Of a stretch of DNA of 54,953 bases, positions 21,607 to 26,329 are shown in pieces. The notes under the pieces are model-generated. The model was not told the origin of the DNA. It saw only the letters and a program-made list of their open reading frames with translations, and made no database searches. Numbering within the stretch: the stretch's first letter is position 1; each line of letters begins with the position of its first letter. A program made the position numbers and the translations under genes. This stretch comes from a virus: the IMG/VR virus record IMGVR_UViG_3300024991_000003; one strand, 5' to 3'.

Positions 21607-21844
21607 CCGTCCTGGCAGGCTCCCGACTACGCAAACATTGGTGCGCTATCACGCTGAGGCAGATCGCTTCTATTTTCGGGAATTGGATGCCAATGGTGGT
21701 CTGTGTCGGTCTGGCATCGTTGACCCGGCTGATTTGCCGATTGAGGTTGAGGATGCTGCGCGAGACGCAGAATGGCGCAAGGGCAGTCACAACCGATATG
21801 TTTATTGGAAATCTGGCCCTGCCAGCATATTGGATGATCAATAA
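21587..21844 (+). CDS. hypothetical protein (85 aa)
   Basis: The track start at 21572 is TTG; the first in-frame ATG is 21587 (MISYNF..). Confidence 0.55.
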   Translation: MISYNFSRPGRLPTTQTLVRYHAEADRFYFRELDANGGLCRSGIVDPADLPIEVEDAARDAEWRKGSHNRYVYWKSGPASILDDQ

Positions 21845-22137
21845 CCCTGCATGAACCCAATCTTGTCCGCTTCTGACAAGTCAGCAACAGCATAGTGCCG
21901 CGCTACGATTAGCTGCGGCACTATTACTGCATCACGACGCCGTACAGCTTCACGTGCGATAGCGTCACGCATGTTTTCGCTCGATCCGAAGTGATAGAGG
22001 ACTGCACCATGGGACAGGCGGATTTCCTTGCCGATCCGGCGCGCGGTCGCAAGAGACGCATCCATGCGCCAGAGCGCGAGGCCAGTCTCAATGATGGTCG
22101 CTTTGACCGTCTCGCCATGGGAATTTGTCTTACGCAC
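21838..22137 (-). CDS. TetR-type HTH protein lacking a ligand-binding domain (99 aa)
   Basis: TIIETGLALW..TARRIGKEIRLSHGAVLYHFGSSENMRDAI fits the TetR N-terminal HTH; GTG start; last gene of the operon. Confidence 0.6.
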   Translation of the reverse strand: MRKTNSHGETVKATIIETGLALWRMDASLATARRIGKEIRLSHGAVLYHFGSSENMRDAIAREAVRRRDAVIVPQLIVARHYAVADLSEADKIGFMQGY

Positions 22138-22525
22138 GTCTCACAATCCTTAAAGCATCCTGAGGGTCTGTCACAAACCCAGCAAAACCGCAAGCATCTT
22201 TGACAAGGCGGTGAAAATTTGCTTGAGCTTGTCCCCTCTTGTCACCGGGTGTCAAATGCCAACCCGGTTTTTTGATCTCAAGTGCAGTGAATACGCCAAG
22301 ATAATATCCAACCATGTCGCCGGTAATTAGTGTTGGTGTGATCCCGATGAGATCGCTTGACTTGAATTTTTTATTTTGTTGTTCACTTTCATTGCAAAGC
22401 CCGTAGCGGATAAAGTTGCCATACTCATCTTGATAGGCACCACTATTATTGCGCCACATTTGTCCCATCGTTGCCTCGATAAAGACTTGACGGGTTTGCT
22501 GTTGTGTGAGGCTCTCAGATGCCAT
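22130..22525 (-). CDS. VRR-NUC domain nuclease (131 aa)
   Basis: Track ORF 22130..22675 trimmed to the ATG after AGGAGA; ..SDLIGITP...FTALEIKKPG...QAQANFHRLVKDACGFAGFV fits VRR-NUC. Confidence 0.65.
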   Translation of the reverse strand: MASESLTQQQTRQVFIEATMGQMWRNNSGAYQDEYGNFIRYGLCNESEQQNKKFKSSDLIGITPTLITGDMVGYYLGVFTALEIKKPGWHLTPGDKRGQAQANFHRLVKDACGFAGFVTDPQDALRIVRRA

Positions 22526-22895
22526 CGTGCATTCTCCTAACAATGCAGGTTGCGGCATTTCCCATGGATTGCGCACAACGCATCGCTTTTTCAAATTGTC
22601 CTCGGTTGATCGCTTTGATCCAATTTTGATGATTTGCGTGAAGTGCCATGACGTACATACTAGTCTCAACCGCACCAGCTTGCACAGCCAGTTTACGCTT
22701 ACTCATTGCAATGTCAAAATGCTCCCAACTGGCATCCATTCCGATCTCACAATCACCGTTCGGGCGCTGAAACCACTTGATTTGGACGCCAATCTTGCTG
22801 GCCATGGCAAACAATTCCTCGCGGGTATCAGCCCACATATGGCACATTTTCATGCGCCCATAGGATGCCTCCATGTTATCGACATAGACGGTCAT
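22515..22895 (-). CDS. DUF4031-like protein (126 aa)
   Basis: The track start at 22898 is TTG; ATG at 22895. MTVYVDN...KMCHMWADTREELFAMASKIGV..KWFQ fits the DUF4031 N-terminal pattern. Confidence 0.55.
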   Translation of the reverse strand: MTVYVDNMEASYGRMKMCHMWADTREELFAMASKIGVQIKWFQRPNGDCEIGMDASWEHFDIAMSKRKLAVQAGAVETSMYVMALHANHQNWIKAINRGQFEKAMRCAQSMGNAATCIVRRMHDGI

Positions 22896-23248
22896 CAAAA
22901 CTGAAACTCATAAGGCAAACTGACATTCATCGGTGCATAATTAAACATCGGTGCAATCTGTGATGGTCTGTATCCTGCCAATCCGCAACCAATCGGTGTA
23001 ACCCTGAAACTATCCTCAGGGTGTTTGTGCGCATAATCCAAGAATGCCAGCACAAAATGGTGAATGAGCGGCAACGGTAGGACGGGCATTCGTTTTTTAC
23101 CGAAACCCTTGGTGGGGATCGCATAACTATTGCCTTGCCGTCCCCACCCGACACCATAAATTGCGCCATGGTTTTGCAATGCAAACAACGCTGCACCTTT
23201 ACCATGTCTGCCCGCTAAATTACTACCAAATACAAACACCTCAGCCAC
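22895..23248 (-). CDS. A1S_2505-like phage non-structural protein (117 aa)
   Basis: VFVFGSNLAGRHGKGAA...GNSYAIPTKG signature recalled for that family; GTG after GGAGGTG. Confidence 0.45.
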   Translation of the reverse strand: MAEVFVFGSNLAGRHGKGAALFALQNHGAIYGVGWGRQGNSYAIPTKGFGKKRMPVLPLPLIHHFVLAFLDYAHKHPEDSFRVTPIGCGLAGYRPSQIAPMFNYAPMNVSLPYEFQF

Positions 23249-24917: not shown

Positions 24918-25336
24918 ACGCGAGCCAATACCACCACAGACCAACAACCATGTTTACCGCCGCGCACCAATGGTGTTGGATACCAAGCCGGATCATGGAT
25001 AACTTTGCCGTCTTGACAAATCACCACATGATCACCGCCGCTGGCAGTCTCACCGAAAAGCATATACGGAACACCAGTACCGAGTGCTTGGAGCAATTCA
25101 TCTCGCGATGTGTCGGGATCATAGTTGGACCACCATGAGCATAACCCATGATGGCATATCAACCATGTATCCATACGATCCCGCACAGTTTCCGCATCGG
25201 CTCCATCATGCGCAAAATGCGGCACCAATTCCGGGCTGTTTTCCATGTCAAGAATGGATGCAACGCAAGCGCGCAAACAATCACCGTATGTCCCGCGATC
25301 AGGGTCATGTGAGATGCGACAAAATACAGGTGTCAT
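24914..25336 (-). CDS. hypothetical protein, possible papain/C39-like cysteine peptidase (140 aa)
   Basis: YGDC(20)LRAC near the N-terminus, then GGDH(103)VVICQDGKVIHD(115)P: Cys-His-Asp order and spacing typical of C39-like folds. Confidence 0.35.
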   Translation of the reverse strand: MTPVFCRISHDPDRGTYGDCLRACVASILDMENSPELVPHFAHDGADAETVRDRMDTWLICHHGLCSWWSNYDPDTSRDELLQALGTGVPYMLFGETASGGDHVVICQDGKVIHDPAWYPTPLVRGGKHGCWSVVVLARV

Positions 25337-25716
25337 GTTAGTTCACCATAGTCGAGAAGAACGATACGACCATTGAGTTTGCCGAAATTATTAATTTTCC
25401 AATCAATCTTGTTAATACCGTACCATTGATGGGGATAATCTGGGTCTTCATCTTTAATTGCGTTGATTGTCATTTCCCAATATTCATCGGGTGTTAATTC
25501 TTCACAACGCGGCATGATAACTGCAAAACCACCCCAGCTTTTCCAAAGCACGGGGCAGAGATGCCAATGATCAGCAAGCACAGTGAAATTGTATTCTTCG
25601 ATGTTGCTTAAAATGCCGTGAAGAAAATGCACCCAACCGTTGCGGATAGACGGTGTTTTTATGGCGTATTTACCGATAAGCAATACGCTACGAGTGACGC
25701 CGTGTGCCAAGCGCAT
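25333..25716 (-). CDS. hypothetical protein with protein-kinase-like core motifs (127 aa)
   Basis: YAIK(20); NIEE(40-41); D(105)WK(107)INN(110) = D-x-K-x-x-N; LLD(122)YG = DFG-like; the protein ends 3 residues later. Confidence 0.4.
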   Translation of the reverse strand: MRLAHGVTRSVLLIGKYAIKTPSIRNGWVHFLHGILSNIEEYNFTVLADHWHLCPVLWKSWGGFAVIMPRCEELTPDEYWEMTINAIKDEDPDYPHQWYGINKIDWKINNFGKLNGRIVLLDYGELT

Positions 25717-25717
25717 A

Positions 25718-26329
25718 TCACTTCACCCAGCTAGGAAGGATTGCACCGGCATATGTTTGAGATTTGGCAAAAGGATGAAAACACCCAAGCCAATTATAAT
25801 CCGTCACATCGCGAATGAGAATGGGTGACCCACGTTCACAGTCAATGCGTTCCTCAAACACCACACCACCGGACGGGCTGCTTTCAATCAAGCGCTGGAT
25901 GCCCTGCGCGTCCCAATACATGGCACCGCGCGCCTGCGGAGGTGTTTCCATCTTTTTGACGATCTCGCGCCAGCGTGACCAATCAGGATCGATCTCACCT
26001 TGATGAAGTAAATTACCAGTAGTCTGATAACCGAACGTTGTTTTTGCCGTAGCGAAACCCAACATCTCGTTTACCACGATATTAATGCGCCCACCGTGCA
26101 TCGCTTCGATCTCACATTGTTTAAGCAATGCGGGATCAGGCACCAAATGAGCAACACCGTCGCATTGTGCAAAATGTTCGATTGCTATGAATGAACGATT
26201 ACCGGCAATGATGCACCCGTTATCGATGCGCAGCGTATTCCAACTTTGATGGACGGTGGGCGGCAACGATGGCGATAATGCGCGTGAGATGCGATGGAAG
26301 GTGTCACACGTCATGGAAAATTTAGGCAT
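25718..26329 (-). CDS. hypothetical protein, first gene of the operon (203 aa; weak sliding-clamp-like pattern)
   Basis: Track ORF checked codon by codon; IDNGCIIAGNRSFIAIE and GSPILIRDVTDYNWLGCFHPF recall clamp beta-strand signatures; speculative. Confidence 0.3.
   Translation of the reverse strand: MPKFSMTCDTFHRISRALSPSLPPTVHQSWNTLRIDNGCIIAGNRSFIAIEHFAQCDGVAHLVPDPALLKQCEIEAMHGGRINIVVNEMLGFATAKTTFGYQTTGNLLHQGEIDPDWSRWREIVKKMETPPQARGAMYWDAQGIQRLIESSPSGGVVFEERIDCERGSPILIRDVTDYNWLGCFHPFAKSQTYAGAILPSWVK

Follow-up and report, generated by a model that had tools for sequence, protein, structure and literature searches.

A leftward phage operon that probably joins a conserved replication cassette to independently acquired accessory genes

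Does an operon in which nearly every gene runs into the next also encode a single functional system? The question is raised by positions 21838-26329 of the viral record IMGVR_UViG_3300024991_000003, a 54,953-nucleotide stretch of DNA that is referred to as a whole as the window. Eight leftward open reading frames (ORFs), named g1 to g8 in the order of transcription, are packed into this region, and the first-pass annotation saw in them together the best candidate for an undescribed system. Comparison with related phages leads to a different answer: the region is probably the leftward arm of a phage DNA replication/recombination module, in which a conserved cassette of five genes (g1, g3, g4, g7 and g8) carries three independently acquired accessory genes (g2, g5 and g6). 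Within the cassette, g4 encodes a helicase of superfamily 2 (SF2), g7 a predicted nuclease of the VRR-NUC type and g8 a small TetR-like protein, while the models of g1 and g3 point to a clamp-like and a papain-like fold, respectively.

Gene order in related phages

The loci compared were those of Rigallicvirus (phages P106B and RHph_X2_24), contigs with g1 homologues, and 36 IMG/VR loci obtained with a g3 profile, together with tblastn searches of the window proteins. In 31 of them (about 29 non-redundant, made up of Rigallicvirus phages and metagenomic relatives) g1 lies directly upstream of g3, and 25 of the 31 carry all five genes, on one strand and in the order g1-g3-helicase-VRR-NUC-TetR-like. 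What is missing from the matches in the remaining six is the helicase or the TetR-like homologue; four of these loci lie on contigs that end too early. The operon of the window is made up of two layers: g1, g3, g4, g7 and g8, whose order is constant, and, set between them, g2 at the g1/g3 junction and g5 plus g6 at the junction of the helicase and VRR-NUC genes.

The junctions of the first layer are filled in many of the relatives. For the 25 complete loci, with any gap above 150 bp counted as an insert, junction A (g1/g3) has a median gap of 19 bp and inserts in 10 loci, junction B (g3/helicase) a median of 11 bp and inserts in 8, junction C (helicase/VRR-NUC) a median of 431 bp and inserts in 18, and junction D (VRR-NUC/TetR-like) a median of 20 bp and inserts in 7; the largest gap reaches 2456 bp. 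The cargo found there in relatives is unrelated to that of the window and includes seven N6/N4 DNA methylases, two C5 methylases, two DUF1643 proteins, DUF4406, MazG, Fic and PAPS reductase. Throughout the lineage, all four core junctions serve as insertion hot spots.

The closest relative, contig L008, whose helicase is 87% identical to that of the window, has a 62-amino-acid (aa) ORF in the place of g2. Among related loci g2 is found only in L013, and there at the helicase/VRR-NUC junction instead of between g1 and g3, while g5 and g6 are absent from most relatives and from Rigallicvirus. The trio g1-g2-g3 (24914..26329), which the first-pass annotation had singled out, does not recur as a unit in any related locus. 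Conservation is thus confined to g1, g3, the helicase, the VRR-NUC gene and the TetR-like gene, and the notion of an eight-gene system is contradicted because g2, g5 and g6 encode members of ordinary families of phage proteins, which are unrelated and are not found together elsewhere. The first-pass annotation had itself named such an outcome as the one that would speak against it, and for g2, g5 and g6 it is largely what was found.

Genome, replication context and gene packing

Bases 1-127 and 54827-54953 of the window are identical, and because of this 127-bp terminal direct repeat the window is read as a complete circular assembly that holds an entire tailed-phage genome, about 54.8 kb in length. 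Among its genes are those for a large terminase, head morphogenesis proteins, a tape-measure protein and a tail fiber. The phage is uncultivated and is present in several metagenomes. A megablast of the region against GenBank phages gave no nucleotide-level match, and in reference bacterial genomes the sole g3 relative lies on a contig of a Glaciecola metagenome-assembled genome, with no sign of prophage residence. The helicases closest to g4 are those of Rigallicvirus P106B and RHph_X2_24 (53-54% identity), followed by those of Jedunavirus and others at about 41%.

The operon diverges from a right arm (26437..33150, plus strand) that is laid out as in Rigallicvirus and whose genes encode a 267-aa Pro/Asp-rich protein, a DUF2800 (Cas4-like) exonuclease, a Gp2.5-like single-stranded DNA-binding (SSB)/annealing protein, a MazG-like protein, a 220-aa protein and a DNA polymerase. 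These assignments come from Pfam (DUF2800, 9e-18) and from PHROG matches (phrog_7011 SSB, 2e-45; phrog_1992 MazG; phrog_1252 DNA polymerase, 2e-154). Downstream of the operon, at 17598..19901 on the minus strand, lies a gene for a primase/D5-like protein with the Pfam domains RepB_primase, PriCT_2 and DUF5906, which has equivalents in L011, P106B and Klebsiella phage Geezett. Assignment of the region to a replication module is based on this company, with the DUF2800 exonuclease, the Gp2.5-like SSB and the DNA polymerase divergent from the operon and the primase nearby; the relatives are annotated alike.

Two of the right-arm proteins have features of their own. The 699-aa DNA polymerase (31051-33150), for all its strong PHROG match, has no Pfam match at E<=0.01 and may belong to a divergent family. 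The first right-arm gene (26437-27240; 267 aa, phrog_11133) contains a run of Asp and long Pro/Ala-rich stretches, and its counterpart in RHph_X2_24 is annotated as 'topoisomerase II domain-containing'.

The tight packing of the eight minus-strand ORFs, from 26329-25718 to 22137-21838, held up at every position when re-read from the sequence, the genes being separated by one nucleotide (nt) or overlapping by 1-11 nt. A 1-nt spacer (TGAtATG) lies between g1 and g2; the g2/g3 and g3/g4 junctions each have a 4-nt ATGA overlap; g4 and g5 overlap by 8 nt, the GTG start of g5 having GGAGGTGA upstream; g5 and g6 share 1 nt in TGATG; g6 and g7 overlap by 11 nt; and g7 and g8 overlap by 8 nt, g8 having a GTG start as well. 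The coding density exceeds 100%, with genes that sum to 4527 nt in a span of 4492 bp. The helicase begins at the ATG at 24917, which is kept in relatives, and not at a longer TTG start at 24947, which is not kept. Since all eight ORFs have significant homologues, they are real genes and not chance ORFs. From the layout we infer translational coupling and a single transcript.

The first-pass annotation had also given the operon a divergent promoter gap of its own. The gap itself is real, with 107 bp (26330..26436) between the g1 ATG at 26329 and the rightward ATG at 26437, which has AGGAG 7 nt upstream, but a sigma-70 scan of 20800-27000 found no match within it; the gap presumably holds a bidirectional promoter region. 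At its other end the operon meets a convergent 90-aa ORF (21572-21844, plus strand), with which g8 overlaps tail to tail by 7 nt. No terminator was predicted between the two, and L008 has the same convergent end with a 4-nt overlap.

Proteins of the conserved cassette

The first core gene, g1 (25718..26329, minus strand), encodes a 203-aa protein that the first-pass annotation had called weakly clamp-like, and its structure as modeled with AlphaFold2 (AF2) and searched with Foldseek bears this out. The 50 best matches in the PDB are all DnaN beta clamps (E 6e-5, probability 1.0, query TM-score (TMq) about 0.52), and in BFVD the model matches many phage proteins of about 200 aa labeled 'DNA pol III beta', among them those of AH2, Seurat, LIET2 and REQ2, at E values down to 4e-8, as well as an uncharacterized protein of BcepNazgul. 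The predicted local distance difference test (pLDDT) score of the model is 70 overall, with 72-94 for residues 1-120 and less than 55 for the C-terminal half. At the sequence level g1 has no Pfam, PHROG or PDB profile match, and hhalign against E. coli DnaN gives a probability of 0.7%, so that the clamp call is one of fold; with this evidence g1 appears to be a DnaN-fold, clamp-like protein of two-domain size.

The half of g1 that is modeled with so little confidence is the most conserved part of the family, with the motifs SSPSG-VVFE, RD-x-DxNW and a terminal A-x-L-P-x-W. It may fold only as an oligomer or together with a partner.

The second core gene, g3 (24914..25336, minus strand; phrog_5845), encodes 140 aa for which the AF2 model has a pLDDT of 94.3 and a papain-like, clan CA-type Cys/His fold. 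The best Foldseek match is the C39 peptidase domain of PCAT1 (E 1.9e-3, TMq 0.53), and further matches are to AvrRpt2 (C70), a Josephin-like clippase/deubiquitinase, AvrPphB (C58), staphopain (C47), RavD and UfSP. Cys20 stands at the start of helix 19-28 and His103 in the strand 102-108, and both are invariant in 41 sequences. The Cys and His of what had been described as a Cys-His-Asp protein are in this way corroborated; the third catalytic residue is ambiguous between H114 and D115. No Pfam family was found for g3, even in loose scans of the whole family, and no PDB sequence match. The predicted fold and the two invariant residues suggest a papain-fold Cys/His protein.

Unrelated phages, too, have distant homologues of g3 among their early genes, with neither g1 nor the helicase present. 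In one of these loci, on the unrelated IMG/VR contig L053 (3268-4065), where neither g1 nor the helicase lies near, a weak DUF4031-like ORF sits directly upstream of the g3 homologue; as an isolated case, this could be due to chance.

The helicase g4 (23241..24917, minus strand; 558 aa), the third core gene, is the most readily placed of the set. It matches Pfam ResIII and Helicase_C above their cut-offs and phrog_16 at 3e-84, and it has the motifs GGGKS at 34, DEGH at 139 and QQFGRALR at 342, followed by a C-terminal four-Cys zinc ribbon (CxxC-x12-CxxC, C401-C418), so that the earlier description of an SF2 DExH helicase with a zinc ribbon is well founded. The best NCBIfam model is RadD (NF053632), with 87.3 bits and E 7e-25 over residues 5-365; the equivalog cut-off of 720 bits is not reached, and the likeness to RadD is one of architecture only.

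In three relatives the helicase carries an in-frame insertion of 280-333 codons without a stop (L026, 9479-10405; L041, 9976-10815; L043, 10336-11334). The insertion starts with Cys in L026 and L041 and ends in ...VHNC in L026, which gives it an intein-like appearance. The helicase of the window is without it.

The fourth core gene, g7 (22130..22525, minus strand), encodes a 131-aa protein that matches phrog_93 'endonuclease' at 1.3e-9. D58, E83, K85 and Q101 are invariant in 24 homologues and constitute the VRR-NUC/PD-(D/E)xK signature, which upholds the first reading of this protein as a VRR-NUC nuclease; the Pfam VRR_NUC model matches only 3 of the 24, with a best E of 2.6e-4. The last core gene, g8 (21838..22137, minus strand), encodes 99 aa and follows the VRR-NUC gene in 24 of the 26 loci with a detected VRR-NUC homologue. 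Its family profile finds TetR-family structures at E 2.6e-8, in a match confined to residues 6-60, and the Pfam TetR_N match lies below threshold (E 0.0026, with 18 bits where 24 are required). What is matched is the helix-turn-helix (HTH) alone, and the C-terminal ligand-binding/dimerization domain of about 120 aa is absent, in keeping with the 'TetR-HTH stub' first proposed. The Jedunavirus counterpart is annotated as TetR-like, and g8 is likely the regulator of the module.

The accessory genes

The gene inserted between g1 and g3, g2 (25333..25716, minus strand; 127 aa), belongs to phrog_4301 (2e-20), a family with 1510 representative clusters, mostly of 110-135 aa, whose other members are found in T4-like, jumbo and temperate phages. 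Its GC content of 42.7% is the lowest in the operon, against 52% for the genome and 50-52% for its neighbors g1 and g3, and is consistent with recent horizontal acquisition. The first-pass annotation saw in g2 a mini kinase-like protein. The motif residues do stand: among 108 family members K20, E41 and D122 are invariant and K107 nearly so, with kinase-like spacing, and hhalign places DxKxxN...DYG in register on DLKPEN...DFG. That alignment, made against CDK2 and a seven-kinase alignment with the comparison sequences entered by hand, has a probability of 0.35% and E 0.17; neither the single sequence nor the profile finds a Pfam or PDB match, loose Pfam scans of the family included; in most of the family Glu and Ser take the places of the catalytic Asp and Asn; and the protein ends 5 residues after the DYG motif. 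The kinase reading is an unproven lead at the level of motifs. Scans of IMG/VR with the single g2 or g3 protein found nothing, and the family alignments of g1 and g2 proved too divergent to be used in pattern scans.

One 390-aa relative, P0154, has a g2-like domain (residues 31-141) fused to a Phage_min_cap2 domain (SPP1 gp7 / MuF-like minor capsid), which hints that g2-like domains could be packaged and delivered into the host; the alternative is a fusion that arose as an artefact of gene calling.

Of the two genes inserted between the helicase and VRR-NUC genes, g5 (22895..23248, minus strand; 117 aa) is a phage non-structural protein of the A1S_2505 family (phrog_2072), a placement on which the first-pass annotation was right (NF049995, 138.8 bits against a cut-off of 45). 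It occurs in 459 GenBank phages, which are largely N4-like, and in 543 IMG/VR loci, and in 78 of the 82 g5 loci examined the other seven genes are all absent. In phage HMSP1-Susan it lies upstream of the helicase. Some homologues are labeled 'ADP-ribosyltransferase' or 'ADP-ribosylglycohydrolase' in GenBank (L016, 2501-2869, which is Rhodobacter phage RcMrWorf gp55; Escherichia phage 24-32N). The idea of a macro domain to which these labels led was not supported, with an hhalign probability of 0.09% against comparison sequences entered by hand.

The neighboring g6 (22515..22895, minus strand; 126 aa) consists of a DUF4031 domain (residues 3-81), again as first proposed (PF13223, 76.8 bits against a cut-off of 25.6), and a C-terminal extension of about 45 aa. 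It is found in 358 GenBank phages, mostly T4-like phages of Klebsiella and Escherichia, which match its N-terminal 79 aa only. The source-database names of the cluster members of g2, g5 and g6 contain nothing informative, PDB sequence and profile searches with g1, g2, g3, g5, g6 and g7 gave matches at chance level only, and no functional information on DUF4031, A1S_2505 or P106B was found in the literature, which for the two families is nearly empty.

Proposed role of the module and alternative explanations

As the leftward arm of a replication/recombination module, the cassette would supply enzymes that work on the products of the right arm. The helicase would remodel forks, D-loops and branched intermediates made by the right-arm exonuclease, the Gp2.5-like annealing protein and the polymerase. 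A dimer of the VRR-NUC protein would cut four-way and branched junctions, allowing the products of recombination-dependent replication to be resolved and packaged. The clamp-like g1 could tether one of the enzymes of the module to DNA, and the small TetR-like g8 could regulate divergent early or middle promoters. The products of g2, g5 and g6 would be stand-alone cargo of the host-takeover or counter-defense type, not subunits of a common machine.

Several observations weigh against this picture. The g1 model is only moderately confident at a pLDDT of 70, its highly conserved C-terminal half is poorly modeled, and sequence-profile comparisons of DnaN with g1 are non-significant. The g7 protein itself has no match to Pfam VRR_NUC (PF08774) even at E<=0.1, and the counts of promoter-like and terminator-like sites in 20800-27000 are those expected of shuffled sequence. 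A plain replication role does not explain the constant place of g3 between the clamp-like gene and the helicase, and the joint presence of g5 and g6 in related contigs, treated below, could reflect a functional link restricted to the lineage.

A bolder reading, which we consider unlikely, would make g1, g3 and the helicase a new fork-processing unit in which a clamp-tethered papain-fold enzyme acts with a RadD-like helicase. As an integral part of phage replication, the Cys/His enzyme would remove or cleave a protein bound to DNA or to the clamp, such as a component of the host replisome or SSB, a DNA-protein crosslink or a ubiquitin-like conjugate. The same reading would separately make g2 one of a very large family (over 1500 clusters at 50% identity) of 'half-kinases' of about 120 aa, with an N-lobe and catalytic loop as the only parts used to bind ATP.

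It is also rather improbable that the cassette serves mainly in host takeover, with g1 mimicking DnaN so as to bind or poison the host clamp or its partners, g3 a protease or deconjugase acting on a host replication or repair protein or on a ubiquitin-like defense protein, and the helicase and nuclease degrading or remodeling host DNA. Such a role would suit a g1 with only two clamp-type domains and a C-terminal A-x-L-P-x-W, fit for protein interaction, in which the Trp is invariant and the Ala and Pro nearly so. It would suit as well a g3 whose fold neighbors include effector proteases and deubiquitinase-like enzymes and whose homologues stand, outside the module, among early genes of unrelated phages. 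The cassette is, however, embedded in bona fide replication genes, co-oriented and conserved with them; clamp-fold proteins of comparable size, around 200 aa, are found in many phages and annotated as DNA polymerase III beta; and the pairing of a helicase with a VRR-NUC protein is standard for replication modules of phages (PMC5686142).

For g5 and g6 the question is whether they were captured at the helicase/VRR-NUC junction of this lineage as a functional pair, for instance one for nucleotide- or ADP-ribose-directed counter-defense. The two are adjacent or nearly so in the window and in four related contigs (L008, L027, L028 and L029), in two different orders, and so have stayed together despite a change of order; the ADP-ribosyl labels of some g5 homologues point the same way. 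Against this, g6 lies within 6 kb of g5 in only 3 of the 82 examined g5 loci, all of them contigs of this lineage, L017 has g6 without g5, L009 and L041 have g5 without g6, the macro-domain link of g5 found no support, and neither family has a PDB sequence match. Shared ancestry and rearrangement explain the co-occurrence most simply, and a dedicated pair is doubtful.

That all eight genes form one dedicated complex, for replication restart, DNA modification or counter-defense, is very improbable: the genes do share a strand with overlapping stops and starts, the same phage with g1, g2 and g3 adjacent was assembled from several samples, and g5 and g6 recur jointly, but tight overlap is the norm across these phage modules regardless of content, g2 is shared with L013 alone and at another junction, g5 and g6 are missing from most relatives, the same junctions hold unrelated cargo elsewhere, the accessory families live mainly in unrelated phages without the remaining genes, and no PADLOC defense model is matched by any of the seven non-helicase proteins, the helicase matching only restriction- and Dpd-type helicase models.

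A conserved replication cassette with independently acquired cargo is therefore the reading we prefer, and it has some general consequences. Genes that lie tightly packed in a phage operon do not thereby form one system, and comparative gene order is able to separate a replication core from mobile cargo. Two conserved hypothetical proteins of the Rigallicvirus type can be given predicted folds, a sliding clamp for those like P106B gp55 and a papain-like Cys/His fold for those like gp57. The four hot spots within the replication operon are places to look for counter-defense or host-takeover genes. What remains of interest here is the pair of clamp-fold and papain-fold genes that precedes the helicase in about 30 phages, the hot-spot architecture, and the size of the g2 family, which, like A1S_2505, is a large uncharacterized family deserving a structure or an assay.

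Comparison with known systems

The closest counterpart of the cassette is found in the Rhizobium phages of Rigallicvirus, where genes 55-60 of vB_RglS_P106B and the corresponding genes of RHph_X2_24 include these five genes with order and strand unchanged: P106B_55 corresponds to g1 (29% identity), _57 to g3 (40%), _58 to the helicase (53%), _59 to the VRR-NUC gene (49%) and _60 to the TetR-like gene (48%). There, too, the genes on the divergent side encode an exonuclease, a Gp2.5-like SSB and a DNA polymerase. The accessory genes g2, g5 and g6 are missing from Rigallicvirus, and P106B has a 76-aa ORF at the g1/g3 junction. Identities between Rigallicvirus and the window are only 29-54%, with no match at the nucleotide level, and the strict CxxC...CxxC pattern of the window helicase was not found in the Rigallicvirus homologues.

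Three of the core proteins may be compared with better known enzymes. RadD, an SF2 protein carrying a zinc ribbon, takes part in recombinational repair, and proteins of its type work on recombination intermediates (PMC9049331, PMC8887467). The g4 protein shares with E. coli RadD (YejH) a RecA-like SF2 core followed by a four-Cys zinc ribbon, but scores only 87 bits against the cut-off of 720, and its C-terminal region (433-558) is unrelated. In structure, the stand-alone VRR-NUC proteins known from bacteria and phages are similar to Holliday junction resolvases (Pennell et al. 2014, PMC4103454). The 131-aa g7, a predicted nuclease, is like these stand-alone proteins (PF08774) in size and in its D...ExK...Q residues, and it adjoins a helicase in a phage replication module; it differs in falling below the Pfam model, which 3 of 24 family members match, and weakly. 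The papain-like peptidases (C39, C70 AvrRpt2, C58 AvrPphB and the Josephin-type deubiquitinases) have in common with the g3 model the fold and the placement of Cys and His, the former at the N-terminal end of a helix and the latter on a strand, whereas TM-scores are only about 0.35-0.53 and g3 belongs to no family at the sequence level.

In a wider circle, the replication module of Nazgul-like phages consists of a primase, a transcription factor, a polymerase, a VRR-NUC protein and a helicase (PMC5686142). The pairing of helicase and VRR-NUC, which the first-pass annotation had recognized as a known one in phage replication and recombination, recurs in that module, in AH2 and in Jedunavirus. 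Geezett has no g3 homologue that we could find, nor a sequence-detectable g1 homologue beside its helicase, and in the Nazgul-like phages and Jedunavirus the gene order differs from that of the window and the helicases are only about 41% identical. Short proteins of AH2, BcepNazgul and Seurat do match the g1 model, and the functional set is the same in the window as in the Nazgul-like, Chi-like and Jedunavirus phages (Enc34, AH2, BcepNazgul, Geezett): a DUF2800-type exonuclease, a Gp2.5/DUF2815-type SSB, a polymerase, a phrog_16 helicase, a VRR-NUC protein, a small transcription factor and a primase. The functional gene set of the module is thus already known from Nazgul-like phages, and the locus described here adds a member to a known type of module.

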